Shown here: positions 40,781-64,000 of the stretch, in pieces
How the letters are laid out: each line of letters opens with the position of its first letter
How positions within the stretch are numbered: the first letter of the stretch is position 1
Assembly: GCA_030390025.1 (NCBI GenBank)
Contig: CM059432.1
Coordinates: 71,178,001 to 71,242,000 of the forward strand
Reading direction: 5' to 3'
Origin: Squalus acanthias
Taxonomy: Eukaryota
Length of the DNA stretch: 64,000 nucleotides
Position numbers and translations under genes: made by a program
The notes under the pieces: model-generated
Seen by the model: only the letters and a program-made list of their open reading frames with translations
Told to the model about the DNA's origin: nothing
Database searches by the model: none

Positions 40781-40829
<49 letters not shown>

Positions 40830-40984: not shown

Positions 40985-41019
<35 letters not shown>

Positions 41020-41812
41020 AGTCTCTCTCTCTCTCTCTCCCGCAGTCTCTCTCTCTCTCCCCCAGTCTCTGTCTCTCTCTCCCCCAGTCGCTCTATCTCT
41101 TACCCCCAGTCTCTCTCTCACTCCCCCAGTCTCCCTCTCTCTCTCTCTCCCAGTCTCTCTCTCTCTCCCCCCCAGGCTCTCTCTCTCTCTCCCCAGGCTC
41201 CCTCTCTCTCTCCCCAGTCTCTCTCTCTCTCTCCCCCAGTCTCTCTCTCTCCCCCAGACTCTCTCTCTCTCTCTCCCTCCCCAATCTCTCTCTCTCCCCA
41301 GTCTCTCTCTCCTCCCCACCAGTCTCTCTCTCTCTCTCTCTCCCCCAGTCTCTCTCTCTCTCTCCCTCCCCGTCTCTCTCTCTCTCCCCCAGTCTCTGTC
41401 TCTCTCTCCCCCAGTATCTCTCTCTCTCTCCCCAGTCTCTCTCTCTCTCTCTTCTCCCCACCAGTCTCTCTCTCTCTCTCTCTCTCTCTCCCCCAGTCTC
41501 TCTCTCTCTCTCTCCCCCCTGGTCTCTCTCTCTCTCCCTCCCCCGTCTCTCTCTCTCTCTCTCTCTCGCTCCCCCGATCTCACTCTCTCTCTCTCCCCCA
41601 GTCTCTCTCTCTCTCCCAATCTATCTCTCTCTCTTCCCCAATCTCTCTCTCTCCCAGTCTCTCTCTCTCTCTCTCTCCCCCAGTCTCTCTCTCTGTCCCT
41701 CCCCAGTCTCTCTCTCTCTCTCTCTCTCCCCCAATCTCTCTCTCTCTCCCCCAGTCTCTCTCTCTCTCCCAATCTCTCTCTCTCTCTCCCCAACCTTTCT
41801 CTCTCTCTCTCC

Positions 41813-41851
<39 letters not shown>

Positions 41852-43019: not shown

Positions 43020-45414
43020 TGTTTATCGGGCTGCTCCCCCGCTCCAGCTGCTGTCCAGCTCTCTGTGCGGCCTTTCAATTCAACTGCGTGGCAGCTCGAG
43101 GATTAGTGTGCAGCCATGCACCTTAGAGGGAACAGTGGCTGGGACCCATCCTTTCTAGCATGGAAGCAGTGACCAACTCCATTAACGCACTTGTGGACCG
43201 AGCCATGATGCAGGGTCTGATGGCCGATGTCTCAGATTCTACTGCAGCACAAGCAGCAGCCACCCAATGTCTGAGTGCTGCAGTGGAAGCACAGACTGCT
43301 GTCACCATGGCTCTGGATTCCAGTGTTCAAAGGAGCTTGCAGGGTGTCACAGCAGTCCAGCAATCTGTCCTCTAACAGATTACTAGGATTGCTGAGGCGC
43401 CATCTGGGGAAGTGGCAGTGGCTTCCTAGAGAATGAACCTAGAGCTGCTTGAGGTCGCTCTCCAAGGCCGTCTGCAATCTCCGCCACTGAAAATCAGCAG
43501 CCTTTCACCAGCCATGCTGCAGGCACTGGGGTAGCACAGCATAGGAACACTAGGAAGACAGGCACTAAGGGAATGCACAGGGTGATTAGTTTATGTTTGT
43601 ATGCAATATGGCATGATTTCATTTATAAATTTGGTTTGGAATGTTTATTTCATGGTGGTTTTTATTTTTGCATTCTGGTCAAGTGGGCAATGTGATGGTC
43701 AGTGACAGAGGGAAGATAAGGTGTGGGACTGTTGGTGAATGTGGAATTGGGGTTGTGTTTACTGGTGTCGCAGTCGTATGAGTTCTTCACAGACAGCCAG
43801 GCCAGAAAGGAGCTGTCTAGGTTGCCTCCTCCCTTCCTCTTTTCCTGTTCCTCCTCCTCCTCCTCCTCCTCCTCCTGCTCCTGCTCCTCAGCTGCTCGCC
43901 GTATAGCTGGTGGCAAGGGCTCTGCCCTCATGATGGCGAGGTTGTGCAGCATGCAGCAGACCACCAGGAATCTTGACACCCGCTCTGCCGAGTACTGCAG
44001 GACTCCTCCAGTGCGGTCCAGGCATCAGAAGCATGCCAATGGTCTGCTCTATCACATTTTGTGCGGCAGCATGGCTTTCATTGTGTGCATGCTGCCCCTG
44101 TGTGTGTGGGTTGCGCACTGCATCATGAGCCATGTCATCAGTGGATAGCCCTTGTCGCCCAGTAGCCACCCCTTGGTTTGCTGTGACGGCACAGCGGACT
44201 GCCGCACGATACCGGGCAGTGACCTGCATGATTCGCTGCCTCTGGTCACACACCAGCTGGACATTGAGGGAGTGGAATCTCTTTCGGTTCCGGTACATGT
44301 CAGAGTTGATATGCGGTGCCCGCGATACGGTGTGCGTGCAGTCAATGGCACCTTGCACCATGGGATTGCCTGCAATCTTAGCAAAGATGCATGCTCGCTC
44401 TGCCTGCTGCTCTCTGGCAAGAGAGAATGAAATGTAGTCAGCTTTCTTTGAATAGAAAGTCTCAGTGACCTCCCTTAAACAACAGTGGATGGCAAACTGC
44501 GAGATGTGGCAAATATCTCCAGCTCCAGCCTGGACGGAGCCCAATGCATAAAAGTTCATGGCCATGGTCACCTCACAGTCACTGACAATGTGGTCCCTGC
44601 CCTACTCTGATGTTGCAGTTGTGGCTGCAGCAGGTGGCAGATTTCAGTGAGGATGTCCTTATTGATGGGCAGACGTCTCACATGTTCCTTGCTGAGGTTC
44701 AGATCGGATAATTACTCCTTGAACACCCTGGCGGCTATGGCCTCCTGCGGAAAGACATTCTCCCCCTCCCCCTCCTCCCTCTTCTAGGAGCTTGTCCTGC
44801 TCTGCGCAGCCTCTGTTCATTCTCCAAGTCATGCTGTATTCCAAGGGAAACTCTGACTAGTGCACCCATGTCTGTCAGCAAGTGGTTTGTGCAGAAGCCT
44901 TGAAGTTAGGAAAAAGCCCTTCAGCATGTGCCGCACCACTCTCTGTAGACTTTCACCACTTGAAAGAACTATAGAAAGCACCAAACACTTGTAGAATCAT
45001 ACCAACAGCCAGAAGAAATCAACCAGCAACTAACCTGTGCGTAGTTGATGATCCCTTTAAATAGCGCTGGTGGGGGGTCCTTCAATAAGGATATCCTCAC
45101 TGAGGCATCCCCATGGTGCAGGATTCACGTGTTCAGCTGTGCAAGCTTAAGAGAAGGTATTAGCTGGAGAGTTGAGCTCCAAAATGGCTGCGCTGGTGCC
45201 AAATCTGCGTTGCACACTGATTGACATCACAATCTGCCTACTCTGCATACTTCTGGCAGGCACTCACTGCGTGTGCGCTAGCACCTCACCAATATGGCGC
45301 CCAGCGCGATTCGCCCCACAAGTGTGCGCATGAGCATCGGACGCCATTTTGGCACCCAACTGGCACCCATAGCGCCCAAACAACGAGCGCTACCAATCCG
45401 AATTTTGCACCCCC
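43020..45414 (-). mobile_element. Inactivated Harbinger in reverse orientation (transposase pseudogene ~43760-44870 -, Myb exon 3 remnant ~43100-43590 +)
   Basis: [45 protein letters not shown]. Terminus aattttgcaccccc followed by TTA; other end lost. Confidence 0.9.
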
Positions 45415-46126: not shown

Positions 46127-46774
46127 GGGGCGAAATTCCCCTCGTTTGTGACTCCGGTGGGAGGCGCTAACGGGATGCAAATGGCTTTTCGCCCCCCCCC
46201 CCCCGAGGCGATAACCGTGCCTCCCGTGAAATCCCGCGGGAGGTTAGCGGCGGCGCTACCGGGTCTCGCCCCGATCTTCTGCGCCCGGAGATCATGATGT
46301 CCTCTCCGGGCGCAGCGCCCCGGTAGCGCCTCGAGAGAAAAATTCCCCCTCGCGCCCCGCAGCAGCGCCGGGCGATGTTACCGACTGCTGCAGGGGTCGC
46401 AAACAGTGAGGCCGGCCGCTCGCGAGGCGCCATTTAAAGGCGCGGTGGGCTTGAGTACCGGGGCTGATCGCGCTGCACTCCCGCTCCCCGGTGGCCCAGA
46501 AATCTACGATGAAACCTGCAGAGCTCACAGCGTGGGGCCCTGCCCTTTAATGCAGGGAAGAGCCCCTGCAGAGTGGCACTGCTGAACACAGCGCCCTGGA
46601 TCGGGACATTCCCCGACTCTTGCACTCCAAGAGGCAAGTGGAGCGCTTGATTTATTGCTCCATTTCCTTCTTGGAGCAAAAAGAGGGAATTTAACAAATG
46701 TTTGAAAAGGTTAGCGCCTGGCGCTAACTTTCCAAACATTTTTCACCTAGCGCCCCAAATGGGGAATTTCTCCC
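46127..46774. mobile_element. Harbinger-type MITE, GC-rich, right end related to the intact element at 57910-61952
   Basis: ggggcgaaattcccc / ggggaatttctccc, ATG/ATG flanks. TTAGCGCCTGGCGCTAA at 46711-46727 and gcgccccaaatgggg near the end. Confidence 0.8.
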
Positions 46775-47519
46775 ATGAGTCTTATTATATTGTATTGACA
46801 GATAAGATGGACTCAATGGATATTTTCCACACAGATTTGCAGATACGTGTACAAATGCTGAATTTTGTAGCTGTTATCTGGCTGAAAATATTCGAGAAGC
46901 TCAGCCAATTTCCCAGCTCTATATCACTATAAGCTTTTAAATAGTGAACGGCCCCAATGTAGGTATTAAATGCCCGAGTGCCCTGCATGGTGTGTAAACC
47001 TGTTTTTTCCTGGAGATGGATGAATAGAATATGAACCTGAACCCAAAAATCTGATATCATCTAAATCTGGGGGGTGGAGAGGAGGTGAGGGGAAGCGGAG
47101 GTGGGGGAGGGGGATGGCATGAGGCTCAAACAAACAGACTGATCCAATCTGACTTTTTGCTGGTTCCACTCAGATTTGGGGACATGGTTTTTTTTCAAAG
47201 TCTAATATTAACACAATTGCGCAGTCACAGTGTACACACTTGGAAATAACTCAATATTGTAATTTTTTGCTCCAGCACTTTCCAAAGCAAGAAGTGACAG
47301 GCTCAGTTTGGGTTTCAGTTCAAGTGAACAAAAGGAGACAAAGAAAACAAAAGCTGAGTAGAAATTGGGCCTTGTGGCACCTGTTTTACAAGCGTAAAAT
47401 AAGCATATTGAGGGCCAATTTCATAGACTAACATGCTGCGTTCCAACAACATGTGAAAGATATCCGAGCCAAAATTGGGCTAGACAATTTTTCAGGTGCC
47501 CCGGCAGCTGCCTTAAACA

Positions 47520-47905
47520 GACAGTAATATTTTCATCCTTATTTTCAAATTCCTCCATGGCCTCCCCTCTCCCTATCTCTGTAACCTGCTCCAGCTCTAC
47601 AAACCTCCAAGATCTCTGCGCTCCTCTAATTCTGGTCTCTTGTGCATCCCCCATTTCATCTCTCCACCATTGGCAGCCATGCCTTCAGCTGCCTAGGCCC
47701 TAAGCTCTTGAATGCCCTCCTTAAACCTCTCTGCCTTTGTACATCTCCCTCCTCCTTTAAGATGCTCCTTAAAACCTAACTCTTTGACCACCTGTCCTAA
47801 TATCTCCTTATGTGGCTCAGTGTCAAATATTGTTTTATAACGCTTCTGTGAAGTGCCTTGGGATGTTTTAATACATTAAAGGCATTATATAAAGTTGTTG
47901 TAGTT
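47520..47905 (+). mobile_element. L2 LINE 3' end
   Basis: L2-like C-terminal coding remnant, gccttcagctgcctaggccctaagctc, and tail tgtgaagtgccttgggatg...aaaggcattatataaa. Confidence 0.75.
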
Positions 47906-47959
47906 AGGCCCATTACATATGTAAATGAGGGGCCTAACGCCCATTTTAGGACCAATTTG

Positions 47960-49108
47960 CCAATTTGAGAGTAGACTGATGGGGCGGTAATTGGCCGGAT
48001 TGGATTTGTCCTTTTTGTGGACAGGACACACCTAGGCAGTTTTCCACATTGTCGGATAGATGCCAGTGTTGTAGCTGTACTGGAACAGCTTGGCTAGAGG
48101 CGCAGCTAGTTCTGGAGCACAAGCCTTCAGCGTGATAGCCGGGATGTTGTCGTGGCCCATAGCCTTTGCTGTATCCAGTGCGCTCAGCCGTTTCTTGATA
48201 TCACATGGAGTGAATCGAATTGGCTGTAGAATGGCTTCTGTGATGGTGGGGACCTCAGAAATAGGCCGATATGGATCATCCACTCGGCACTTCTGGCTGA
48301 AGTTGGTTGCAAACGCTTCAGCCTTGTCTTTTGCACTCACGTGCTGGGCTCCACCATCATTGAGGATGGGGATATTCTTGAAGCCTCCTCCTCCCGTTAG
48401 TTGTTTAATGGTCCACCACCATTCACGACTGGATGTGACAGGACTGCAGAGCTTTGATCTCATCTGTTGATTGTGGGATCGCTTAGCCCTGTTTATAGCA
48501 TGCTGCATCCGCTTTTTAGCATGCATGTAGTCCTGTGTTGCAGTTTACCCAGGTTGGCACCTCATTTTTAGGTACGCCTGGTGCTGCTCCTGGCATGCTC
48601 TTCTACACTTGTTGTTGAACCAGGGTTGGTCCCCTGGCTTGGTGGTAATGGTAGGGTGAGGGATATGCCGGGCCATGAGGTTACAGATTGTGGTGGAATA
48701 CAATTCTGCTGCTGTTGATGGCCCACAGCGCCTCATGGATGCCCAGTTTTGAGCTGCTAGATCTGTTCTGAATCTATCCCATTTAGCACGGTGGTAGTGC
48801 CACACAACACAATGGAGTGTGTTCTCAGTGTGAAGACGGGACTTCGTCTCCACAATGACTGTGCGGTAGTCACTGCTGCCAATGCTGCCATGGACAGATG
48901 CATCTGCAACAGGTAGATTGGTGAGGTCGAGGTCAAGTAGGTTTTTCCCTCTTGTTGGTTCACTCACCACCTGTCGCAGGCCCAGACTGGCAGTTATTTC
49001 CTTCAGGACTCGGCCAGCTCGATCAGTAGTGATGCTACCGAGCCACTCTTGGTGATGGACATTGAAGTCCCCCACCCAGAGTACATTCTGTGCCCTTGCT
49101 ACTCTCAG
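47960..49108 (-). mobile_element. LINE family B internal fragment (APE and linker to RT)
   Basis: GDFNVHHQEWLGS, EPTRGKNLLDL, PWFN, KAMGHDNIP, NPANYRPISLLS. Confidence 0.92.
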
Positions 49109-49119
49109 TTAAAAATGCA

Positions 49120-49762
49120 TAAGGAATGCTTTCCTTTATTAGCTGAGGCATAGAATATAAGAGAAGGGAAGTTATGTTAAAACTGTATACAACACTGGGT
49201 AGGCCACAGCTAGAGTACTGCGTACAGTTCTGGTCACCACATTACAGGAAAGATGTGATTGCACTGGAGAGGGTGCAGAGGAGATTTACGAGGATGTTTC
49301 CAGGACTGGAAAATTTTAGCTATGAGGAAAGATTGGATAGGCTGGGGTTGTTTTTCTTGGAACAGAGGAGGCTGAGGGGAGATCTAATTGAGATGTATAA
49401 AATTATGAGGGGCCTAGATAGAGTGGATAGGAAGGACCTATTTCCCTTAGCAGAGGGGTCAATAACCAGAGGGCATAGATTTAAAGTAATTGATAGAAGG
49501 ATTAGAGGGAAGATGAGGAGACATTTTTTCACCCAGAGGGTGGTGGGGGTCTGGAACTCACTGCCCGAAAGGGTGGTAGAGGCAGAAACCCTCATCACAT
49601 TTAAAAAGTACCTGGATGTGCACTTGAAGAGCTGTAACCTACAGGGCTACGGACCTAGTGCTGGAAAGTGGGATTAGGCTGGATAGCTCTTTTTTGACCG
49701 GCACGGACAAGATGGGCCGAATGGCCTCCTTCTTTGTCATAATTTTTCTATGATTCTATGAT
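49120..49762 (+). mobile_element. 5'-truncated CR1 3' end
   Basis: ORF 49174-49677 LEYCVQFWSPH...FFTQRVVGVWNSLP; TTCTATGA tail. Confidence 0.95.
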
Positions 49763-50099
49763 TCCAACAGATGTAATCAAATCTCACCTTGATTTAACTA
49801 ACTACAGAACTCTCCTCAAGAGCAAGAAAAATAAAAATATATATGTAATAGGCCTAATGCCTATTTCAGACAGGCGCCACAGGTGGCTGGGTAGTCGCCT
49901 ATGCCTATAAGCCAGCACCCATACTCCTGGTGCTGATCAGGTACAGGGCGTTTCTCCCTGAAATTGTCCCTTGTTGCACCTGTTTTACGCCCATTAGGCC
50001 TGTCCCTACTCTTGGCCTTCATATGAGTGTTCCTAGTGATCAGTGACTGTAAATATCTCATGGCAGCAGTGATATTGCAGATGCCAGTAACATTCTCTC

Positions 50100-50200
50100 T
50101 CCTCATTTACAACAGTGACTCCACTTCAAAAGTACTTCATTGGCTGTAAAGCGCTTAGAGACGTCCGGGTCGTAAAAGGCGCTATATAAATGCAAGTATT
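50100..50200 (+). repeat. SINE/L2-type 3' tail fragment (second copy ~51780-51910)
   Basis: acaacagtgactccacttcaaaagtacttcattggctgtaaagcgc...aaaggcgctatataaatgcaagt, repeated imperfectly at 51810-51910. Confidence 0.6.
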
Positions 50201-50714
50201 GCTTTCTTTTTCATTTGGCTCTGTTCCACACAGGTGGCCAGTGGTCCCCTTCACATTTTACACCATGTTTTGGATGCTCCTAGGCAGATCCTCAAAGAAT
50301 CTAACAGTCACTCATGATCTGAAAGCATTCTTCTTTTAAAAGCTGGGCCCCAATGATGTAGATCTCTGGTCAAGCAGCTGGGGACATTTGTAACCTAACT
50401 CTCTGGACAGGTGCTTCCTGCTCCTCTGAAATCATCTCCTCCGCCTCCTGCTCACTTGTGCTCTGTGCATCACCTAGGCTTCTCTCCTCAAATTGAAGAT
50501 CTGGGTCCAACACGGAGGATGCCTATGTGCTGGTACTTGCCTGAATCAGATGCAGCAACAAGGTGTTTGGTGAGGTGCTGGCTGGGTGGTCATGGGTGGC
50601 CTTGCTGCAGTTTCTAGTTCGTGTCGAAGAAAGATAAAAAGTGAAGTACTAGGGACATTTCCTCAGAGGTACTATGACTAGAATAACAGCAACAACAGCA
50701 ACAAAAACCCACAA

Positions 50715-51270
50715 TCACAATAACAGCAAATTGCATTTGTGTAGTGCCTTTAATATAGAAAAACATCCTAAAGTGCTTCACAGAGGCATAATCGAAAACT
50801 GAACGCCTAGCCAAAAAAGGAACTATTAGGAGGAGTAAACAAAAGCTTAGTCAAAGAGGTGGGTTTTAAGGAGGGTCTTAAAAGAGGAGAGGGAGTTGGA
50901 GAGGAAAAGGTTTAAGGGATAACATTTCAGAGCATGGGGCCTGATGGCATGGCTGCTAATAGTGGGGCAAAGGGAGAGTTTGGGGTTTGTAGGGCTGGAG
51001 GAAATAGAAACATAGGGAGAGGTAAAGACATGATGGAATTTAAACATGAGGAGAAGAATTTTAAATTTGAGGTGTTTGTGGACCTGGAACCAGTGTAGGT
51101 CAGTGAGGATAGGGGTGGTGGGCAAGTAGAACTTGATGTGGGATTGGATATTGGCAGCAGAGTTTTGTTTGAACTGAAGTTTACGGAGGATGGAGGATGA
51201 GAGGCTGTCCTGGAGAGCATTGCAATAGTCAAGTCTGGGTGTGACAAAGGCATGGATGAGGCATTTGCGA
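50715..51270 (-). mobile_element. L2 LINE 3' end
   Basis: TPILTDLHW..V...LKFKILLLMFK and SFKTLLKTHLF, typical L2 C-terminus, plus tail. Confidence 0.85.
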
Positions 51271-52738
51271 CAGATGGCCTGAGGTAGATTCAGAAGTGGG
51301 TAATGTTATACAGCTAACTGCATGAAGAGCTGCCTTAGCCAAGCAGCTGGCATGCTTGGCTTGATGTACAGAAACCGAGGTATCAGTGCTTGTGGGAGTA
51401 TATATGATGGAATGTACATGAGGGACCAGTGCCTCTTGCTTCATTATCCCTAGCCTCCTCCTTAATATACTGGCCCTGGATCTCATGTGCACACTCCTCA
51501 AATTATGTCAGATCTGTTCCTCTGACTCTGTTCTCTTGTGCATCTCCACCCCCATTGCCCGGGTCTACCTGTCTGCTGGCCAGCTCGCCAGTCAATATTG
51601 CGCTGACCTAGAGTCAACAACTAGTAGTGGGACACCCATTCTGGGCATGCAGATCACTGGCGGCATGATAATGAGGCCTCCTGCCAGCAGCAATGGGCAA
51701 ACATTCCACCCGCTGCCCACCGGTGCCATGCCTGGAGTAAACATCTACCCATTTTCTGGTCATGCTTTGGCCGAAATTGCTGTGCAGAACTTGGCTGCCA
51801 TGTTTCCCTACATTACAACAGTGACTACGCTTCAAAAAGTAATTCAATGCCTGTGATACACTTTAAGGCGTTCTGAAGTCATGAAAGGTGCTATATAAAG
51901 GCAAGTTCTTTCTTGTATCAGGAGTTGTGGTTCTCAGCATTGTAAGTTTAAGTACTCTTTCAGTACGATATTATGATGTTGTGCTGATGTTTTAATCTTA
52001 CAAGATATTTTGGAAGGACAGGGGGATTTTATGCATGAAAATACTGTAGGATATTGATTTGGTTTTTAATTAATTTTAAAAATGTAGTTTCATAAGACAT
52101 TGAAATGTGGTGTACAGTTCTTACATAGAGGAGATACCCCAACCTTTGAACTCTTTTGGGTTGCAATGACACCTTTTGCTAAAATAGGAAAAGGAATTAC
52201 TAAGATTTTCATACATTAATATCACATAGTGCAATTTGACTTTATTTATCAAAACAGATACCAGGTTTTGACTGAAAGTAGGATTGTGAATATCACTGTA
52301 CAGTTCAGATCTTGGCAGGTAATAGGATAAATCATCTCAGCCAATCAATGTTGTGTGTCATCTTCAGCAAACATCCCATGACGATTTCAATTACTGTTGC
52401 CATTGATTGGGTTTGATAAGCATATGACTTCTTTTACAGTCAGCAGACAGAGAACACTTGTATCCAGCATTCTAGGCTGGATTTGAAACAAGGTCCATGA
52501 ATTTAAAGATTTGCAACTACTCCACTATATTATCCAATCCCTTTAGATAAGAATGGTACCGTAAAAAAAAACAGGGGAGGGGGTTGGGAGGAGAATTTTC
52601 TGAAATTGGTGAATTTGATTGGTGTTTGCCTTTTGCTTGCATGGGATTAAAAGGACAGTTGTGAATTCTGTCAATGGCGGAAAAAAGCAATGGACATTAT
52701 TAATTGAAACCATGCTGCATTTTCCATAGAATTATTTA

Positions 52739-53274
52739 AGTCCCGATTTTAACTCGGGGCGGGAGTTGGGTAGGTGGAGGTCGAGTAGGTGACAAACCAT
52801 CCTGACCTTGGCAGCGTGAGGCCCGGGAGATTTTAACACCCAGGCCTCACCTACATGTCCCCGATCAGTCCTCGCTCGAAATCTGCGGCAAACTGCAGCT
52901 GGCAGGCAATAGCGGAATGTCAGGCAGCAGGAGACTGCTGTTGCAGACCGAAGGAATGGTCCAGGAAGGGATTTGTGAGAGCCTCATGATTGGGGAGGGG
53001 GGGAAACCTGGGGCTGGGAGGCCTAAACTTTCCTGCTCCTTCTGGCTCCACAAGGAAAGTTAAAAGAAGTAAATCAACTTAAATTTTTGGGCCTCTTCTA
53101 GCCCGACTCCTCTTCCAACTAGGTTGGCCTGGCTGGAAAGCCACACTGGCTTCTGTGCTTAGGCCTCTGGTTAAAATAGCAGTCGGACCCTGGCTCTGCA
53201 TATTTAAAGAAAGACCCTGCCAGTTTCCGGCAGGTGCCCTTCATGACCGCTCAGAAGAGGTTAAAATCGGAACC
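52739..53274. mobile_element. Harbinger-type MITE related to 17008-17562
   Basis: agtcccgattttaac / gttaaaatcggaacc termini; internal similarity to the 17-kb MITE. Confidence 0.65.
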
Positions 53275-53684
53275 TTTGGGAAGCGATCAAGACCTCTGTG
53301 GGTAAGTCCCGCAGGCAATTTAACTGCTTGCCCACCCGATTTGTGAGATGGTAGCAAACAACTTAATAATGTCTTTGTTGACTTAAATTGCTCTGCATGT
53401 GGTTGTTATAGTTGCTGCAGTCTTGAATTTTTTCTAGTACTGAGTCACTAGGATGGGAGGATTTTCTTGGGCACTATGTCGACCTGCATCCAAGGGGTGT
53501 CTATTCAGAAGGGTCGCTAGCTCATCCATTTCCACAAATAAGAAGACAAACAATTGGAGGGGTAAGAACAATTTTATGTAATTGCTGGCTTCCTCAGTTT
53601 CTGGGTATGATCAACTACGCTCACATGAAACCAACAACCGTCCATCAAATGCAGCAGAGGAGTATTCTGGACACAGTGAAAACA

Positions 53685-55140
53685 ATGACCATGACAACAT
53701 CCTGGCTGTAGTGCTGAAGGCCTGCGCGCCTGAACTAGCTGCCCCCACCCCCCGACAAGCTGAGCAATCCAGTGCAGCTATGACACTGGCATTTACCTGA
53801 CAATGTGGAAAATGGCCTGGGTGTGTCCTATCCATAAAAGTCAAATCAGGCCAATGACTGTGCTATCAACCTCCTCCCTATTATCAGCAATGTGATATAA
53901 AAGTAAACAATAGTGCTATCAAGCGATATCTGCTCACCATAACCTGCCCGCTGATGTTCAGTTCAGGTTCTGCCAGAACCACTCAGCTCCAGACCTCATC
54001 GTAACCTTGACACAGACATTGATGCAAAAGCTGAATGCCAAAAGAGAGGTAAAAGTAATTGCCCTGGACATCAAGGAAGCATTCAACTTGGGTATGACAC
54101 CAAAGAGCCTTAGTAAAATTGACGGCATTAGGACAAACCCTCCAGTGGCTGGAGTCATATCTGACATACAAGAATTGGTTGTGGTTTGTCAGAATTTTAT
54201 ACACTTCTATGAGGTCCCCTCTCAATCTTCTAAACTCCAGTGTGTACATCCCTAAACTACATAGTCTCTCCTCATAGGTCAATCCCGCCATTCCTGGTAT
54301 CAGCCTGGTGAATCGCCGCTGCACCCCCTCCATGGCAAGAACATCTTTCCTCAGATGAGGCGACCAAAACTGTACACAGTACTCGAGGTGTGGTCTCACC
54401 AGTGCCCTGTACAGCTGCAGCAAGGTATCCCTGTTCCTGTATTCCAACCCTTTTGCTATGAAGGCCAGCATACCGTTTGCCTTCTTGACCGCCTGTTGCA
54501 CCTGCATGCTCGCCTTCAGTGACTGGTGTACAAGAACACCCAGGTCTCTCTGTACTTCCCCCTCTCCCAATTTATTGCCATTTAAATAATAATTTGCCCT
54601 CCCGTTCCTGCACCCAAGGTGGATAACTTCGCACTTGTCCACATTATAGTGCATCTGCCATTTATCCGCCCAATCACCCAGTCTGTCCAAATCGCTCTGG
54701 AGCTTCCTGGTCTCCTCCTCTGGTTGTCAGAGGTCAATTATCACAGCCCCAGGACATTGCTGGAGGAATTCCTCAGGGTAGCATTCTTGACCCAATCATC
54801 TTTAGCTGCTTTATAGTTGACACTCCCACCCTCATAAATTCAGTAGCAGGGATGGTCACTGATGATTTGAGTGTTTGGCTTCATTCGCAACCCCTCCAAT
54901 AATGGAGGAGGTTTGTCGATCCATAGCAGAACCTGGATAACGCCCAGTCATGGGCTGACAGGTGACCAGTAAAATCGTGCCACAAGAGTGCCATGCAATG
55001 ATCATCTCTAACAAGAAAAGGCTCAACTACTTTCCCATAACTTTCAACAGCACCACCATTGCTGCATCCCCACCATCAACATTCTGTGGGTCACCAAAGA
55101 CCAGAAGCTTAACTGGACCAACCATATCAACACAGTGGCT
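53685..55140 (+). mobile_element. Decayed LINE family B RT fragment interrupted by a CR1 piece
   Basis: Collinear with 12690-13640 on both sides of the 54189-54720 insert. Confidence 0.85.
54189..54720 (-). mobile_element. Internal CR1 fragment lacking its 3' tail, flanked by an ~11-bp TSD
   Basis: Open frame DRLGDWADKWQM...RGDLIEVYKIL. tggtttgtcaga (54182-54193) / tggttgtcaga (54721-54731). Confidence 0.9.
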
Positions 55141-56050
55141 ATCCCAGTACCAAAGCAACTACACTGCCATATCCATTAACCATTAGTATATTTCACATTT
55201 TAATTTTAACATTACATTTTAATTTTAATCTAATCACTGATTGGTCTAGCTCAGGTTGACAATTTATTCATCTGATTGTTCATAAAAATTAAAATATCAG
55301 CTTATGAAAAGTTCATTATTGCCATTATTCGCCATGGGGTTAATTCTCATGCAATTATCACCAGCACCTCCCCCTCCACTATAGCTCTCCTTGTATCTCA
55401 CACAAATACTCTGCATGAAATTATTTCTTTGCTAAAGCTCCTAAGGCACCGTGTGAGTCATATTCATAGACTACTCACATTATTGGCTTTTTAACTATCT
55501 CAATAGAATTACAAATGTGGTAGTGTGAAAAGAAACAATAGGAAGGGCTTATGGAAAGGTTCTGTCTCTTCTCATACTCTGGCGTTGCAGTACTCTGTCT
55601 TACTTCTTCTCTTGTGACAAGACAAATGTCAATGTATTTGCAATAAGATCCTACATTTTCAGCTTCAAACACCTTTACAGTGTTAAAGCCTGGTCTAAGT
55701 GTTGCATCACAAGTGGCATAAAAGCACAGTAACATCAGAGTATAAGGTTGGAAATTCCTGCTAACAAAGATGGTTTCACTGGTTAGACGGTGTGAGCAGT
55801 GGTTAGAAAATTGCAAATTCGTCAGCTCGATTACTTTACCTCTGCTCTGAACTGGTTGTCTGTCAGTGGTTTGACAACTTCATTCTATTTGCAAGTCAAA
55901 ATAATTGTTAATGGTTAGCATATGATTTTCCTGGTTTCTTACACTGTACATGCATTGTGCTAATCTCACTCACTTCGATGGGCATTAAAGGTTGACCAGG
56001 TTCTTGCCTTAAAGCTGCATTCTTCACTTATATTTCCTACCATGTCATTT

Positions 56051-56561
56051 CATAAGAACATAAGAACATAAGAAATAGGAGCAGGAGTAGGCCAATCGGC
56101 CCCTCGAGCCTGCTCCGCCATTCAATAAGATCATGGCTGATCTGATCCTAACCGCCAATCTACTATCTATCACAGAACCATCTCCTGCATCTAACAGAAT
56201 TGCACACACGAAATAGGAGCAGAATCAGGCTACATGGTCCCTGGGCCCGCTCCACTACCCACAGGGCCATGACCGATCCGAACCTAGACTCATGTCCAAA
56301 TTCCTGCCCGCTCCCCGTAACCCTTAATGCCCTTTACTTCTAGGAAACTGTCTATTTCTGTTTTAAATTTATTTAATGATGTAGCTTCTACAGCTTTTTG
56401 TGGCAGCATATTCCATGGACCTACCACCCTCTGAGTGAAGTAGTTCCTCCTCATCTCAGTTTTGAAAGAGCAGCCCCTTATTCTAAGACTATGTCCCCTA
56501 GTTCTAGTCTCACCCGTCATCGGGAACATCCTCCCCGCATCCACCCGATCCAACCCCTTCA
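56051..56561 (-). mobile_element. CR1 3' end with extended 3'UTR
   Basis: KGLDRVDAGRMFP...YFTQRVVGPWNMLP; AAGAACAT tail; a second tail-like motif at ~56210. Confidence 0.92.
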
Positions 56562-56564
56562 AGT

Positions 56565-57720
56565 TATGGGGATAGCTTTCAGAGCTCCATTTTCATTGGA
56601 TTTAGTTGAAGAGGATGAAGAACAAAGAGGGGATTCCAGCAATGTTATATGGCACCTGATGCAGACTGGCAGTATTACCAGTATGTCATCAACTATATTT
56701 ACAGCCCCAGGAATAGGTATCTGGCAATGAATGAGAGAGAGCTGTCTCTGCAATTTCGGGTTCAGCAAGAGGGCAGCTGCCAAGCTGTGCTATTAATTTC
56801 AGTGAAATCTGTAGCCAAACTGACAGTCAAAGTGACTACAATTTTATGCCTTTGGCATCTGAAGAGGGTGACATAATGGAAATGCTAGACAAATGAATTC
56901 AGAGGTCATTGCACACTCATTTTCTCAAACAGCCACGTGTGCAACTTTTCCCCCATAAACCTGGCACTACTGCTTCCTAGGCTGCTAGACTCTGATAAGT
57001 GCTGAAACTTTGGAAAATTGCTGTCTAATTCATTTTTTTTTACTTGTTCATGTGATCTGGGCGTTGCTAGCAAGGCCAGCATCTATTGTCCATCCCTAAT
57101 TGGTACTAAGAAGGTACTCCCACAGTGCTGTTAGGGAGGGAGTTCCAGGATTTTGACCCAGCGACGATGAAGGAACGACGATATACTTCCAGGTCAGGAT
57201 GGTGTGTGACTTGGAAGGGAACTTGGAGGTGGTGGTGTTCCCATGCGCCTGCTGCCCTTGTCCTTCTAGGTGGTAGAGGTCGCGGGTTTGGGAGGTGCTG
57301 TCGAAGAAGCCTTGGCGAGTTGCTGCAGTGCATCTTGTAGATGGTACACACTGCAGCCATGGTACGCCGGTGGTGGAGGGAGTGAATGTTTAAGGTGGTG
57401 GATGGGGTGTCAATCAAGTGGGCTGCTTTGTCTTGGATGGTGTCGAGCTTCTTGAGTGTTGTTGGAGCTGCACTCGTCCAGGCAAGTGGAGAGTATTCCA
57501 TCACACTCCTTACTTTTATTGCATCTGAAAGTATCTGTAAAGGCTGCAGTACTACTCCTAGTACTAAGGGAAGCTGTTTAATTAATTCTGCAACCACCCA
57601 GTCAATAAAATGGGTGTACCAATTTGAATACCCTTATATTTAGCATACGTGGAGGAGGAGGAAGAAGATGCAGAAACTGAGGTGGATGACAAGGAGAGAA
57701 GGCACTACAGAAATGACTTC
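56565..57720 (+). pseudogene. Very old Harbinger transposase remnant, interrupted by a LINE family B fragment
   Basis: IYSPRNRYLAMNE..FR.SK..LTVKVT resemblance and an acidic tail at ~57650; weak. Confidence 0.4.
57033..57514 (-). mobile_element. LINE family B 3' fragment
   Basis: Near-identical to 11478-12005, with an internal deletion near 57105. Confidence 0.9.
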
Positions 57721-57973
57721 TAAGTGATTCCCCAGTGAAATGAGTTATTGTGTTGGCTAGCTTCAAAGTTTCAGTGGAGCTGTTTACGATTCAGGGGCCC
57801 TGGTGGCTCCTTGTGTTGTTTTTCTCAGAAGGCTCTGTAACTGGCTCAGCCATGTCCACTGCTGTGGTGGTTGGCTCATCGTGCCTACTTTCTGGCATAC
57901 AGAATCATAAATTTTATAGCACATAGCCGGAAGACTGGAACGTTATCAATCGGTGTGGGGCTGGGGGGGGCGC

Positions 57974-57981
57974 TATTTAAA
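57974..57981 (+). promoter_or_regulatory. TATA-like box upstream of the transposase
   Basis: TATTTAAA ~200 bp before the ATG; (c)tatttaaagg recurs at the equivalent place in other copies (~14054; ~45060 on -). Confidence 0.5.
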
Positions 57982-58176
57982 GGGGGCCTCTTCCTGTCTT
58001 TTTCTGTGGTCGACATTTATGCACCACTCGTTCTGAGAGAGAGAGAGAGATTCGGAGAGAGAGAGAGAGAGACTTCTACATTGACTCAACGCTTTGTGAG
58101 GTAGTTTGGCCTAGTTCATCCTAACTTTGCTGCTACTTTCGTTGCTGTACCTCATTACTTTTCTGGCAAAGAGAAT

Positions 58177-59337
58177 ATGGGGGCTGCAATGATTGGGGGC
58201 GTCGTCCTGCTCCAGCTCAATCGGAGGAGAGTGAGACGCAGACAGAGAGTGGCAATGATGGCCAGACGGAGGAGGGCCATCAAGCGCATGTACAGGAGAG
58301 CTTACCCTCCCAGGGTATATCGTGAACAGCTCTCCTACATCCACATGTCCGAGGAGCTGTGTTTGCGAAGGCTGCGATTCAGCAAGGAGGTGGTCACTGA
58401 GCTCTGCCACCTGCTGCAGCCAGATCTGCAGCCTCAGCTGAGGTCCAGGACGTCTCTGTCGGTGGCAGTGAAGGTCACAGTGGCTTTGAACTTCTACGCC
58501 ACTGGCTCATTCCAAGCTGCTGTTGGGGACCTCGCCAATATCTCCCAGTTTGCGGTGCATCGCTGCATCCGGCAGGTCACCAATGCCCTCTTCACAAGGA
58601 GACGAGACTTCATCTCCTTCCCTATGACCCCAGACAAGCAGCATGACCGTGCTATGGGCTTTGCGAGGGTAGCGGGCTTCCCCATGGTGCAGGGCGCCAT
58701 TGACTGCACGCATGTGGCTTTGCGTGCTCCGCGAGAGAATGCAGAGGAGTTCCGGAACAGAAAGGGGTTCCATTCCTTGAATGTGCAGTTGGTCTGTGAC
58801 CACAGACAGGTGATTCTCGCTGTCAATGCCCACTATCCGGGCAGCTGCCACGATGCTTTCATCCTGCGCCAGAGTACTGTGGCAGAAATTTTCGAGGCAC
58901 CGCATCAGCCAGTTGGTTGGCTTCTGGGGGACAAGGGGTACGCATTGAGCACCTGGCTGATGACACCGCTCCGTGCGCCAAACACCCCTGCTGAGCTGCG
59001 GTACCAGGAAAGCCAACAAGCAACGAGGAACATTATTGAGCGCACAATCGGCGTGCTCAAACAACGATTCCGCTGTCTGGACCATTCCGGAGGAGCCCTG
59101 CAGTACTCGCCTGAGCAAGTTTCCAAATTCGTAGTGGTGTGCTGCATGTTGCACAACATGGCAATCCTCAGGACGCAGCCAATGCCACCAGGCCTTGCAG
59201 CACCACAAGAGGAGGAGGAGGAAGAGGAGGAACAGGCCGAGGACGATGATCAGCAGCAGCACCAAGGCAGGAGGGCGGCCCACAATGGTCAAACTGCAAG
59301 GGCCGTCCGTCAACGACTAATAGCAAGCCGCTTCTAG
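58177..59337 (+). CDS. Harbinger DDE transposase (HARBI1-like), 386 aa, intact
   Basis: Single ORF with HTH region, GAIDCTHV (D), NRKGFHSLNVQLVCD, YPGSCHD, LLGDKGY (D), RNIIERTIGVLKQRF (E), CCMLHN, acidic tail. Confidence 0.96.
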   Translation: MGAAMIGGVVLLQLNRRRVRRRQRVAMMARRRRAIKRMYRRAYPPRVYREQLSYIHMSEELCLRRLRFSKEVVTELCHLLQPDLQPQLRSRTSLSVAVKVTVALNFYATGSFQAAVGDLANISQFAVHRCIRQVTNALFTRRRDFISFPMTPDKQHDRAMGFARVAGFPMVQGAIDCTHVALRAPRENAEEFRNRKGFHSLNVQLVCDHRQVILAVNAHYPGSCHDAFILRQSTVAEIFEAPHQPVGWLLGDKGYALSTWLMTPLRAPNTPAELRYQESQQATRNIIERTIGVLKQRFRCLDHSGGALQYSPEQVSKFVVVCCMLHNMAILRTQPMPPGLAAPQEEEEEEEEQAEDDDQQQHQGRRAAHNGQTARAVRQRLIASRF

Positions 59338-59631
59338 GGCCCCTGCCAGTGCTACAAACACGAATCAACCCAGCACGCAACCCCTAAGCCGGCCAAGGCA
59401 CCAATAATTCCAACCACCAGCCATGTATATTTTGAATACAGAAACTTATTTATTGTACAAACTCTGTGTGTGTCAATTCCTCATGACAAACTCATAGAAA
59501 TAAACACAAAAAAACAGTCAATAACATAACTGGTTCTCACAACCTGGAGATAATGTCCAAAACACTAAACAAAAGTTGGGCCATGAACCTCGGCCTTTAA
59601 TAAAAAAATGACCAGCATTTTGGCACACCTC

Positions 59632-61595
59632 CTACTTTTTGCCCTTCGAGGGTGATCTCCTTCCCTTGCGCACTTCCCCCCTTCTAACCCTACTGCTCCT
59701 CCGTAATGGGACCTCAGTGGCTGCAGCAAGGCTGGTGGAAGGCTGCTGCTTGTCAGACCCTGACACTGCAGATGCCCCTGAAGGACGGCCTCGACCACTT
59801 CTGGGCCTGGAGGGCCCGGCTGCAGACTGCACCAACTCTGCATGGGCGGCAGCAGTCTGTCCTACAGGCGGTGGCAAGTGCAGTGGAGAAGTGACAGTGT
59901 TGGCAGCAGGAATGCTGTCATCGTGAGAGAGGACAGCAACTCCCTGCTCGCCCGACACACTGGCACTCCCACGGGGCAGCACTTCAGCATCCGGAGCAAT
60001 TTGCCGGAGAACAGATTGCTGGCCTGCTGCGGCGCGGTGACAGCCCCGGGGACATGTGCACGAACCATCGAGGATGGCAGCAGTCAGTGCTCGCGTGGCC
60101 TCAATCTGAGTCTGCATGAGAGCAGTCTCAGATGGGTTCCTGGCAGCCAGTGACTGAATTGCAGCAGTAAGCTTTAGTGTGGCATCCGCCTGTGCTACAG
60201 CGAAGTGCTCCACACTCCTTGCCAGTGCCTCAATGCATTCGGGCACCCTTCCCACTGCACCCATGAGCTCAGTGTGCATGCCCACCGCCTGGCTGTTCAT
60301 TTCTGCAATCAGCCGCTCCTCCTCTGCGTCCATCGCAGTAGGAGTGTCTGGCATACTCTCCCTCTGGGGAGAAGGCTCCCGTTCTTCCCTCCCCCCCCCC
60401 ATGGCGTTGCTGCAGCCCGCTGGGTCCTGGAACTTCACCATCATCAGCCCCTTCCCCCCTGCTCCCCCGTTCTTCCCTCCCCCCCCAATGGCGTTGCTGC
60501 AGCCCGCTGGGTCCTGGAACTTCACCATCATCAGCCCCTTCCCCCAGCTCCCCTCCGGGGAAGGCGTGTTCCCAGTGTGGCCATGGGCTTCCTCGGGAGA
60601 GGGTGGCACTGATGCTCCGGCTTCCTCTTCCTCCTCAGCTGCAGCATCACTCCCAGTGGCAGCTTCAGGGACCATCTCCTCAGCTGGTGAATCACCATCT
60701 GAAAGCAGGGAGGTACAAGAGTGGCTTTAGCGTGAGGACAGGGTGGCAGTAAGGGAGGAATAAGTGCAGCGAGTTAGCAAGTTGGATTGAAAGTGTCAAA
60801 GGCTGGTATTGTGAGGGACAAGTGGAAGGACAGAGGACAAAAAGGTGATGACCTTACCATTGCTGTCCACAACGGGGTCGGCGTCTCCAGTGGCGACGGG
60901 ACCGATCACCCGGCTTGCCACAATCCTGTGGACGCGCTCCTCCAGATCGCTGAGGGGTTGCAGCTGAAGCCGCCCTCCACCCGTCCGTTGCTGCTGTCTC
61001 CGATTATGAGCCAGCTTAGCCTGCAAGAAAAAGGACAGCATCTGAGTCAATATACAGCCATGGTCTTGCCTGATGTGCCTCCCATAGGTGAATAGCCCTT
61101 ACAATATGCAGCCATGGTCTTGCCTGATGTGCCTCCCATAGGTGAATAGCCCTTACAATATGCAGCCATGGTCTTGCCTGATGTGCCTCCCATAGGTGAA
61201 TAGCCCTTACTGTATGCAAAGTGTGGAATGTGTGTGTGTGTTTGATGAAAGGGCCATAGGTGTTGCATGAGTGTTGTGCATTGGGGTTTTAAGACCCTCT
61301 GGCCATAGAGTGAGGTTGAGATGGAGGGATGGAGAGGTATTGAGAAAAAGCCACTCACCCTGACGACCCGAGTGAGGTCGTTGAACTTTTTGCGGCACTG
61401 GACATGGGTCCTGGGCACCATGCTCCTGGAGGAGACGCTCTGAGCCACCTCCCTCCACACTCTTCTGAACTCGCGTGGCAAAGGCCTCCTGCCACTCTCC
61501 GGGAACAGCATGCATCGTCTGCGCTCCACTGCGTCAACCAGAGCATCCAAGGCCCGCTCGGTGAAGCGATGAGCGCGTTCTCTCACCCTCTCCAT
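59632..61595 (-). CDS. Harbinger Myb/SANT-like DNA-binding protein, 3 exons (61595-61359, 61020-60858, 60698-59632), 488 aa, intact
   Basis: Donors AGG|GTGAGT and ATG|GTAAGG; acceptors TTCTTGCAG and CTTTCAG. 237+163+1067 = 1467 nt with no internal stop. RFTERALDALV..VWREVA..QCRKKFNDL, RTGGG, basic C-terminus. Confidence 0.9.
61049..61210. repeat. 3 x 54-bp tandem repeat in Myb intron 1
   Basis: aatat(a/g)cagccatggtcttgcctgatgtgcctcccataggtgaatagcccttac at 61049, 61103, 61157. Confidence 0.97.
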
Positions 61596-62199
61596 GCTTG
61601 GCAGCAAAATGGATTACAGGTCTCTCCAGGCTGAGATTCAAGGCTGCAATGAGCAGGGTGTGGCTGGGGAGCAAGTGGCCCCCCCCGCTTTAAGAAGTGT
61701 CCGGCGCCAGTGTGTCTGTGTTCCCTCGCTAACTGGCAGCAGCTGCGCTGCGCTCGTGCGCTGAGGTAGCGCCTCACTCCTAGGCCTTTGCGCCTTAAGA
61801 GAGGTGTGCAGCGCCTAATTTAGCGCTCCACTCACCTCCCGGGGCGGTAAAAGTGAAGTTTCCTGTCAGTGCCGATAATTAGCGCCAGGCGCTAATATTT
61901 GCGCTCGGACGATATTTGCGCCCCAAATGGGGCGCGACCTAATTTCTACCCCATAGTCTTATACCACAAAAAGAGGCCATTTGGTCCATTGCAGCTGCGC
62001 CGGCTGTCTGAAGGAGCTATTCCCTTGGACCCATTCCCCTGTCCTTTCCCCACACCTACTGCTTTGACAGACAGCAGTCTCATCCATGCTTCTCCAATTA
62101 TGTCCCTGCAGTTGGCTACTCCCAGTTTGAAGCATTTTATTACCAAGATAGGTTGGGACTGTAATCTTTAAAGAAGCGTAGACTTGGTGGTGATGTATT

Positions 62200-62700
62200 A
62201 AGGTTTACAAGATGATGAAGGGAATAGATTGTGTTTATGTAGACAATTTGTTTCTATTCAATAGGTTAGGAAGGACCAAGGGGGTCACAATCTCAAGTTA
62301 TGTAAGGCCTGAACTAGGTTAAATGTTGTGAGGTGGTTCTTTTCCCAGAGAATAGTGGACCTGTGGAACAGGCTGCCAGCTCATACGGTGGATGCTGATT
62401 CACGGAATTATTTCAAACGTGAGCTGGACCTGTTTCTGGCTCAGGCAGAGATCACCTCGCACAAGAGGTAGGTACTGCATGACATAAATCAGGGTCAGAG
62501 TCTCCTGGACTAGTTCGATTTCCTAAGGGGCTCAGAGAGGAATTTTCCAGATTTTTCTCCCATAATTGGCCTGGGTTTTTATCTGGTTCTTCACCTCTCC
62601 CAGGAGATTGCAGGGCTTTCGGGTGCGCTGGGGGGTGTATAGATTGTGATGCACAAAGCATCACTGTAGTGTGGGACAGGCTGGATGCACCAGTGGCTGT
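62200..62700 (+). mobile_element. Decayed CR1 3' fragment
   Basis: KVYKMMKGID...FFSQRIVDLWNRLP...FKRELDLFL. Confidence 0.75.
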
Positions 62701-62837
62701 TTTCCTGTCCATCATTGTTTGTATGATCACAGGTATAGAAGCAGATCCAAGGGCAGCACTGAGACTCGTGAAGCCTTGACTCGTGGCTCTCTCCATCCGA
62801 TCTCCCAGCATGTTGAAGCAGGACAAGAAAGTCTCTA

Positions 62838-62935
62838 ACAGAATCAAAACATGCTGAAAACACTCATCCAGTTAATCAGCATCTGTGGAGAGAACAGACA
62901 ACTTAACGTTCAGATGCAGAACCTCCGTCAGAACC
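62838..62935 (-). mobile_element. Decayed Penelope-like terminal fragment
   Basis: Minus strand ttctgacggaggttctgcatctgaacgttaa resembles a degenerate CTGANGA..GAAACG hammerhead-bearing PLE end. Confidence 0.4.
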
Positions 62936-63539
62936 CAATATACAAGAGGATCGGATGGAACCCAAGCTATAGTAGCAGTGTGGGCACTCACAAGTGATAC
63001 TCTCAGGAATGGACCTGTGCTACTGGGGCTCCACTACAGACGCCCCTGAAGTTGCCACATACTTCATGGTAGACAGCTGTCCAGAGAACTATACCTACTT
63101 GACTCAGCAGATGCACCTACTCAACTCCTCCACAATTATAACCTGACCTTGCAGGGAATTTTGCTCATGTAGACTTTTTAGTTCTTTCTTGGGATGAAGA
63201 AATCAGCAAAACCAACACAAAACATCACGCATTTTAAGTGCAAATTACATCCAGCGCAAATTGAGTTTCTGCAATCTTTTGCGTTGGTTTAGAAAACATC
63301 GCGCTAGAAGCCAGCCCCTCCCATGGAACTGGCCACGAGTACAGATCGAATTAATCACCATTGCGAGTTTCTGCTAATTGCACTTATTTGCAGGCCTTCG
63401 AGGAGGCTCTTAAAATTAAGCTTTTTTTTTTAGGCGTTAGGACACTAATAGGCAAGTTTTGAAAGCTTTTGTATATAATTTTCTTTTAATTTACTAAGAA
63501 ACTGAGTACTGTACACCAATATAACTAACAAATTACAAA

Positions 63540-64000
63540 GTATTTACAGCGTGAAATAGGCCATTCGGCATAACAAGTCTATGCTGGTGTTTATGCTCCA
63601 CACGAGTCTCCTCCCACCCCTTTTCATCTAACCTCATCAACATATCCTTCAATTCCTTTCTCCTTCTAGCTTCTTCACCTCATTATTCACCTCAACTACC
63701 CCTTGTGGTAGCGCGTTCCACATTCTAACCACTGTCTGGGTAAAGACGTTTCTCCTTTTGGATTTATTAATGACTATCTTATATTTATGGCCCTAGTTCT
63801 GGTCTCGCCCACAAGTGGAAATATCTGCTCAACGTCTACCCTATCAAACCCTTTCATAATTTTGAAGACTTCTATCAGGTCACACCTCAGTCTTCTCTTT
63901 TTCAGGGAAAAGAGCCGCAGTCTGTTCAATCTTTCCTGATAGGTAAAACCTCTCAGTTCTGGTATCATTCTAGTAAATCTTTTTTGCACCTTCTCCAGTG
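63540..64000 (-). mobile_element. CR1 3' fragment continuing off the right edge
   Basis: QKRFTRMIPELRGFTYQERL..DLIEVFKIMKG, plus tail. Confidence 0.9.

Follow-up and report, generated by a model that had tools for sequence, protein, structure and literature searches.

The element at positions 57926-61952 of the window (the 64,000-nt stretch of the Squalus acanthias assembly analysed here) is, with a probability of about 0.86, not a host gene but a recently inserted and likely immobile copy, now lacking its left terminal inverted repeat (TIR), of a high-copy Harbinger DNA transposon with two proteins. We classify it as a damaged member of a young, high-copy family of a known superfamily, PIF/Harbinger (PHIS), whose features are present: a Harbinger-type DDE transposase, a second Myb/SANT gene, a 3-bp duplication of the target site (TSD) in a palindromic target, and dispersed copies. 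The parts of the element and its flanks are listed in Table 1.

Table 1. Parts of the Harbinger copy and its host flanks, in window coordinates.
Feature	Positions	Strand	Remarks
Left host flank	57600-57922	.	Low copy; last ~30 bp are CR1-tail-like landing sequence
Left TSD copy, ATA	57923-57925	+	Single copy in empty allele; register fits Harbinger3_DR target halves
Single G, likely the sole remaining base of the left TIR	57926-57926	+	X6 and X10 loose ends agree mutually and differ from the window
Residual left subterminal region, TATA-like box (57973), (GA)n tract	57927-58176	+	Box TATTTAAAG shared with related left ends
Harbinger DDE transposase, 386 aa, open	58177-59337	+	D176/D252/E288, Q277, K36
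Myb-like gene, exon 3 (predicted)	59632-60698	-	Contains 87-bp tandem duplication 60378-60553
Myb-like gene, exon 2 (predicted)	60858-61020	-	Acceptor and phase-1 donor kept in window paralogue
Myb-like gene, exon 1, coding for the 79-aa Myb/SANT DNA-binding domain	61359-61595	-	Pfam PF13873; conserved GT donor
Right subterminal region with palindromic TAGCGC/GCGCTA motifs	61596-61940	-	4 motifs vs. 0.11 expected
Right TIR, GGGGTAGAAATT	61941-61952	-	X6 has 3 different flanks past it
Right TSD copy, ATA	61953-61955	+	Matches left ATA at 57923
Right host flank, presumed 3' tail of CR1-like LINE	61956-62060	-	Aligns with two other window tails

The site without the element was found in a public DNA run (X1), in which a 502-nt contig (record 2) joins positions 57700-57921 directly to 61952-62200; over 472 letters it differs from the window flanks by 2 substitutions and 1 gap (99.4% identity). 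The depth of this contig (18.8) and of a neighbouring flank contig (22.7) is single-copy depth, and the skipped length of 4030 equals 4027 + 3. Over the left flank (57600-57922) X1 depth is 18.8-35 vs. ~99,000 or more within the element. X1 looks like a proximity-ligation library, as 9 of its 15 joints shown touch restriction sites vs. 7% of positions; its internal 'deletion' joints were thus mostly set aside as library ligation products. The joint of record 2 lies at no GATC, GANTC, CTNAG or TTAA site. Judging from the letters, X1 may come not from the species of the window but from a sister species, so the empty site need not reflect polymorphism within a species. The window letters at 58874 and 59127 have a depth of 15 and 35 in X1, yet match another run, X6 (organism B).

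The empty allele also sets the borders. The initial annotation had given a span of 57910-61952; its right edge stands, but the element starts at 57926, as 57910-57921 is host DNA in the empty allele. Likewise, of the ATA repeats proposed at 57907/57923 and 61953, those at 57923 and 61953 were borne out (the empty allele carries one copy of the repeat and the filled site two), while 57907 is host DNA and the CR1-tail junction rebuilt from it was wrong. The right TIR and its subterminal motifs are present as described: GGGGTAGAAATT occurs exactly once in the window, on the reverse strand and ending at 61952, and TAGCGC/GCGCTA occurs four times within 61690-61951. These motifs are likely Myb binding sites, and the region is likely also the Myb promoter, as far as sequence can suggest. 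No long TIR pair was detected in 56000-64000. The right flank, which we take to be a CR1-like LINE tail, aligns to two other tails in the window with a mean column identity of 69%.

Comparison of the junction with the published Harbinger3_DR target halves gave 9/12 matches for the ATA register (P ~0.0004 at 0.25 a base) and 4/12 and 3/12 for the neighbouring registers. The CAT register, prompted by two window MITEs with CAT or ATG, ranked lower (4/12), and the 57907 site gives 8/12 matches but is excluded by the empty allele. All three right flanks of X6 copies have a purine at +1 and a T at +4 after the triplet, one of them perhaps from alignment run-on. The target triplets of the family, known from four sites only, are ATA (the window and one X6 flank), TTG and AAG. 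By analogy with the work on Harbinger3_DR and mPing, the Myb protein would bind the element ends and recruit the DDE transposase, which would place the element in a palindromic target of the 15-bp type and duplicate 3 bp; at this locus the target would have been a CR1 tail. Taken alone, the site is also compatible with a 5-letter reading of the repeat.

The proposal that the left end is missing was upheld. The TATA-like box at 57973 lies only 46 bp from the first family-matching base, and sister copies extend further left; in related left ends with the same TATTTAAAG box the distance from box to end is 271, ~304 and 349 bp. A search of the + strand of 47355-58879 for the 12-mer GGGGTAGAAATT, allowing 2 mismatches at most, returned no match. 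The loose left ends of sister copies run 157 nt before 57930 in X6 and 8 nt before 57927 in X10, and match each other, not the window (30 letters of the 157 compared for X6, none of them showing the left TIR itself). The missing part would measure 157 bp or more by X6, and about 230 bp by analogy with the related ends. An autonomous, mobile Harbinger copy carries TIRs at both ends; here only the right TIR is present. The suggestion that the copy is immobilised is thus supported: with the left terminal repeat lost and the family left end longer, it is likely immobile.

As to how the end was lost, we somewhat favour a cut by the transposase at the left end, after which the DNA was resected and joined or the gap was repaired incompletely, because the deletion begins no more than one base from the element edge and left every host base in place, an outcome rarely expected of a random deletion. 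A break flush with the duplication and intact host bases would equally be left if the copy never had a left end, that is, if a donor already broken ~230 bp inside its left end went in through its right end alone, host repair completing the other side and making the 5-letter repeat CATAG. The repeat can indeed be read as 5 letters instead of 3. Yet a 3-bp duplication of ATA and the initial G of the TIR account for the same letters with nothing extra needed, and three paired elements of the window have 3-bp duplications, so that we regard one-ended integration as unlikely. It would alter the mechanism only, with the element identity unchanged. That the real copy is complete and the truncation an assembly error is very improbable, since the left junction coincides with the target duplication set independently by the empty allele.

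The uninterrupted 386-aa transposase noticed in the initial annotation was confirmed. The reading frame has no stop, and the catalytic residues D176, D252 and E288 lie in the motifs IDCTH, GDKGY and IERTIG of a Pfam DDE_Tnp_4 domain (PF13359, E 5e-38). Their alignment columns are shared with 98/117, 93/115 and 76/116 relatives, respectively. Position 277 is Q in the window protein and N in 105 of 115 relatives, and K36 is private to this copy. The other transposase copies in the window are broken, as claimed: all five relics are split across at least two ORFs. The upstream region 57927-58176 is likely the transposase promoter and leader.

The nearest proteins to the transposase are many elasmobranch paralogues, several of which (P0001, P0014 and others) are auto-named 'putative nuclease HARBI1'; the best is 65% identical. 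In the tree, which has no identified true HARBI1, the window protein falls in a 98/96-supported set of 14 of the 26 rows, the other 13 being sawshark or sevengill paralogues. No close relative appears among the 120 listed proteins, which suggests that the family is not among the annotated ones. Only 53 of these 120 keep all three catalytic residues, as is expected for decaying transposon copies. A HARBI1 motif matched 0 of 121 proteins, and a sequence search gave no solved structure.

For the second gene, the three-exon model (61595-61359 / 61020-60858 / 60698-59632, minus strand) predicts an open 488-aa product with two GT..AG introns, in agreement with the initial annotation; the same annotation's 'fully intact' is an overstatement, as ~50 codons are frame-shifted relative to sister copies. 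Exon 1 encodes a Pfam Myb_DNA-bind_5 domain (PF13873, E 1.3e-9), and its GT donor is found at the same residue in all five window paralogues examined. The exon 2 acceptor and phase-1 donor are conserved in the paralogue at 26560-26870, and an annotated homologue, P0121, spans the same exon 1-2 junction. The search with exon 1 among longer proteins gave 1 of 158, and exon 3 had no homologue among 8,000 candidates. None of the runs that contain the element is recorded as RNA. No splice joint was seen among 15 of the 32 joints, none of those 15 being from X17, and record 23 of X17 (a run only guessed to be RNA) runs unspliced over the exon 1-intron 1 border; as contigs show presence only, the joint and border results neither support nor oppose Myb splicing.

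The frame shift arises from compensating 1-bp differences in two C-runs (60541-60545 and 60391-60400) of the 87-bp tandem duplication, which place codons ~186-235 in another frame than in the X6, X10 and X17 copies. The two slips may be real or may be assembly errors. C-runs in tandem repeats are a common site of long-read errors, and both slips sit in such runs within a 95% identical tandem repeat. The state of the sister copies makes up only 24% and 5% of X1 depth, although short contigs hide indels, and with the evidence even we consider it possible that these two indels alone are errors, leaning slightly against it.

The view that the family is very young was supported by many near-identical copies and the empty orthologous site. 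In X1, 23,806 contigs match the element, 5,896 of them at 99% or more. At position 58130 the depth is 238,525 in 13 contigs, so that one contig reaches at least 18,348, or 520-980 times the flank depth; summed contig depth does not equal copy number, the X1 figures cover ~55% of the run, and this bound may be off several-fold because depth is uneven in a proximity-ligation-like library. The element was detected in 20 of 24 listed runs, 16 of which (11 studies) hold at least half of its 31-mers, as do six organisms. Over 3,823 letters in its 8 listed pieces, the X6 sister copy shows 22 substitutions relative to the window (99.4% identity); it lies elsewhere, with a longer left end and three other right flanks. 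The listed X17 pieces are 96.8% identical to the window copy and hence come from other copies. The window differs from all four runs compared (X1, X6, X10, X17) at 58283, 60334 and 61817; the comparison has ~190 variant rows in all. No filled orthologue of the locus was found in these four runs.

With two open frames, one TIR gone and two Myb indels that happen to compensate, the locus resembles what would be expected of incipient co-domestication, in which selection would maintain an immobilised, fixed pair of genes, as with HARBI1 and NAIF1. This reading, suggested in the initial annotation, is refuted by the many near-identical copies and the empty orthologous site, both named beforehand as observations that would speak against it, and we consider it extremely improbable. 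The empty allele has 99.4% identical flanks, element depth is hundreds-fold that of the flank, and a 99.4% identical sister copy lies elsewhere; a divergence of ~0.6% predicts open frames anyway. Domesticated Harbinger genes, as described in PMC9392472, are single-copy at a conserved position, whereas this family is multi-copy and the present site is empty in X1.

The copy, which keeps its TATA-like box, may supply proteins in trans to complete copies or MITEs; such supply would be nothing special, because hundreds of copies exist. It is quite improbable that this copy is a chief supplier of the two proteins to the family in this genome. The frames are open, the TATA-like box is kept and the catalytic triad is present, but ~50 Myb codons follow a frame that is not the family's, three positions are unlike all four runs, and the pieces in X17 (guessed RNA) derive from other copies. 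With no left end, a shifted Myb linker and private changes, the copy is a poor choice as the 'ready-made template' for a transposon system that it was held to be.

Several known systems resemble the element. The reconstructed zebrafish Harbinger3_DR (PMC2836001, PMC3016246) likewise has two genes (DDE and Myb-like), short TIRs and a 3-bp TSD; its triplet is CWG vs. ATA in the window, where the copy is natural and the left TIR lost; the two were compared by description and by their targets. NuwaI and NuwaII of the PHIS superfamily (PMC4482050) share DDE and Myb/SANT ORFs, GGG-starting TIRs and a length of ~4.3 kb with the window element. The window site C|ATA|G shares the C..G frame of NuwaII C|TNA|G, yet the family triplets ATA, TTG and AAG, from four sites only, fit neither NuwaI CWG nor NuwaII TNA fully. 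Harbinger-Snek of sea kraits (PMC8437027), compared by description only, is also a two-gene Harbinger with recent mass expansion in a marine vertebrate and with intact and defective copies, for which horizontal transfer was argued. Its 269 intact copies in Laticauda colubrina mean that natural intact vertebrate Harbingers are already published. HARBI1, NAIF1 and MSANTD1-4 represent the same two ancestral protein types, domesticated ~430-500 million years ago and at conserved positions, the MSANTD genes being stated to be single-copy (PMC9392472); the window element, in contrast, occurs in many copies, bears a TIR and is missing from its site in a near-identical genome.

Among cartilaginous fishes, a 2022 survey detected no Harbinger in elephant shark and calls for further species (PMC9179366), and a paper on the genome of a reef shark puts DNA transposons at 1.58% of that genome, with Harbinger among the commonest and LINEs most recently active (PMC12498223). 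We found no description of a young autonomous shark Harbinger family in the open-access literature (Repbase and Dfam lay outside this search); PMC4255032 gave 0 matches to 'Harbinger', as did the main text of bioRxiv 10.1101/2025.06.08.657570.

The 57926-61952 copy itself matters little, being a truncated representative of a superfamily already known; greater interest attaches to the family, which has likely been active in sharks recently. Being 97-99% identical across six organisms, with filled and empty sites, it would provide markers, based on its insertions, for sharks that are closely related, as well as natural protein pairs as candidates for a transposon tool with target selectivity. 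We put it at close to, though a little short of, an even chance that transposition of the family continues in sharks alive today: this insertion would then be segregating within one species, one lineage would just have seen the amplification of a subfamily marked by diagnostic letters of its own, and natural copies that are complete would function in cells without reconstruction. If true, the family would represent a live DNA transposon with two proteins, in animals for which recent activity has been called LINE-dominated, and its long target preference would direct it to CR1 tails.

Translation of the transposase reading frame of the focal Harbinger element gave a 386-AA product free of stops, with the catalytic residues D176, D252 and E288 all present, as the initial annotation had described, and with a match to the Pfam family DDE_Tnp_4 (E 5e-38). 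Among the 60 alignment columns that are at least 85% conserved (120 homologues listed), the protein deviates at Q277 only, a position occupied by N in 105 of 115 homologues. A sister copy in X6, a public sequencing run of organism B, is identical over this stretch (record 25), and Q277 is therefore likely a trait of the family, not private to the focal copy. Because the best of the 120 protein matches listed, paralogues from sawshark, ray and shark, reach at most 65% identity, the family is likely not represented among them and its host is probably an elasmobranch. All five other transposase copies in the window were found in pieces, consistent with the earlier claim that each is broken; piecewise, they are 34-63% identical to the focal protein.

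The Myb-like gene is predicted to be spliced through GT-AG introns into 488 open codons. The donor of intron 1 lies at the same residue in all five window paralogues examined, the annotated homologue P0121 reads through the same exon junction, and both borders of exon 2 are kept in the paralogue at 26560-26870. To this extent the gene is intact, as claimed, but part of its frame may not be. X6 and X10 (a further run) carry one extra C in the C-run at 60541-60545, and in that at 60391-60400 one C fewer is seen in X6 and part of X10 and four fewer in run X17; window codons ~186-235 are therefore in a frame shifted with respect to these runs. Here the window reads KGLMMVKFQDPAGCSNA twice and the alternative frame GEGADDGEVPGPSGLQQRH twice; in a paralogue near 26000, SGLQ is in the frame running on into the conserved C-terminal block. 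On the other side, the sister-copy states make up only 24% and 5% of the depth in X1, a run of organism A, although short contigs hide indels. The indel pair is either real slippage or an assembly error, and neither reading puts the Myb domain or the C-terminal part out of frame.

The focal stretch was found in 20 of the 24 runs listed, with at least half of its words in 16 (11 studies, six organism codes), and contigs over 57600-62200 were compared for four of the 24 (X1, X6, X10, X17). In X1 the depth was 19-35 in the flanks and ~99,000-1,230,000 inside the element, with sharp edges in the bins containing 57926 and 61952. As summed contig depth is not copy number, a single-contig lower bound was taken: at 58130 a depth of 238,525 is shared by 13 contigs, so that one has at least 18,348, or 520-980 times the flank depth. 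This figure is rough because X1 resembles a proximity-ligation library: GATC, GANTC, CTNAG or TTAA is touched by 9 of the 15 joints shown, vs. 7% of positions. Hundreds of copies can safely be assumed. Substitution identity to the window, for the longest pieces only and with gaps uncounted, was 99.4% in X6, 97.9% in X10 and 96.8% in X17. The family is dispersed and many-copy, and the focal element has the defining features of the PIF/Harbinger superfamily.

An X1 contig (record 2; 502 nt, depth 18.8) runs from 57700-57921 directly into 61952-62200; over 472 letters it differs by 2 substitutions and 1 gap. No restriction site lies at the joint, which drops one copy of the direct repeat. This contig is either a pre-insertion allele or a product of precise excision, which is frequent in the superfamily (PMC2836001); under both readings the insertion is not fixed. 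Incipient domestication, raised as a possibility in the initial annotation, would call for a single copy at a fixed position, and neither was found.

The empty allele has 57910-57921 as host DNA, which overturns the start earlier placed at 57910 together with its rebuilt junction. The direct repeat CATAG occupies 57922-57926 and 61952-61956. With ATA as the duplication, 9 of 12 positions match the flanking halves of the target of Harbinger3_DR, the reconstructed zebrafish element (PMC3016246), vs. 4 and 3 in the neighboring registers. All three X6 right flanks have C at 61952 in common and T at +4. In this register, the lost left TIR probably began with G57926. The right TIR is present as annotated, and no other exact copy of GGGGTAGAAATT occurs in the window. 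The sequence flanking the element on the right, which we take to be a CR1 tail, can be aligned to two further LINE tails from the window.

The left terminus is indeed missing. Left of the point where the focal copy breaks off, X6 continues for another 157 letters ahead of 57930 and X10 for 8 ahead of 57927; these extensions match each other and differ from the window. The TIR-to-TATA distance is 271, ~304 and 349 bp in related ends vs. 46 bp here, from which the focal copy would be short by about 225-300 bp. The copy inserted into a good match to the long Harbinger target. As the missing stretch starts no more than one base from the element's edge and no host sequence went with it, we favor, at a probability of roughly 60%, a break triggered by the transposase, after which the left end would have been lost by resection and end joining or by incomplete gap repair. 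One-ended integration, which would also leave the left end absent, is a distinctly less probable explanation, and chance deletion or assembly error ranks below it. For mPing and the zebrafish reconstruction, PMC2836001 and PMC9392472 describe a Myb protein that attaches to the element ends and recruits the transposase to them; we infer that the same scheme may hold for this family. The focal copy does not have the two TIRs of a mobile copy and, its left TIR being absent, is likely unable to excise, in line with the earlier suggestion of an immobilized copy. It may still be transcribed.

Harbinger families are dense within these 64 kb, where five or more relics of Myb exon 1 accompany the transposase relics. 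At 13782 a Harbinger left end seems, by eye, to interrupt a LINE reverse-transcriptase relic. An X1 joint from 58002 to 61818 (depth 62.8, skipping 3815 bp, at no restriction site) is possibly a MITE derivative of the focal family, and 58002 is also where a loose end lies in X10. Depth rises several-fold at 61604-61911, the right subterminal region, in X17, X10 and X6, which suggests that short non-autonomous relatives have this end in common with the focal element.

Features of the focal element and of other repeats in the window
Feature	Coordinates	Details
Focal Harbinger element	57926-61952	4027 bp, ATA register
Transposase ORF	58177-59337	forward strand
Myb gene exons	61595-61359, 61020-60858, 60698-59632	reverse strand
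Tandem repeat	61048-61218	54 bp x 3.2; Myb intron 1
Tandem repeat	60378-60553	87 bp x 2; Myb exon 3
Transposase relic	7941-9148	
Transposase relic	14338-14895	
Transposase relic	18341-20170	
Transposase relic	24145-25185	
Transposase relic	43665-44711	
MITE-like element	17008-17562	duplication CAT (3 bp); TIRs related to those of 46127-46774
MITE-like element	46127-46774	duplication ATG (3 bp); TIRs related to those of 17008-17562
Harbinger-type element	35675-38381	2.7 kb; perfect 15-bp TIRs; AAA duplication (3 bp); near-palindromic flanks; Myb exon ~35979-36179; no transposase match
CT-rich array	38747-42930	4.2 kb; ~22-bp period, 192 copies
Shorter array	32502-32954	unit similar to that of 38747-42930

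In the open-access literature searched, we found no description of a young abundant Harbinger family in sharks. Harbinger-Snek (PMC8437027) and LatiHarb1, which makes up 9.3% of the coelacanth genome (PMC3787270), are young, abundant vertebrate Harbingers that have natural intact copies. Of the 38 internal variant rows shown, 15 have the window letter in X6 and a different one in most of the X1 depth; at 58874 and 59127 the window letter has a depth of only 15 and 35 in X1. The X6 contigs may represent one or a few copies, as this run totals only 0.14 million letters. The letters common to the window and X6 at these two and 13 other listed sites possibly mark a lineage-specific subfamily burst. 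Since they are common to X6 and in the minority in X1, the window may belong to the organism B lineage, with a subfamily amplified there.
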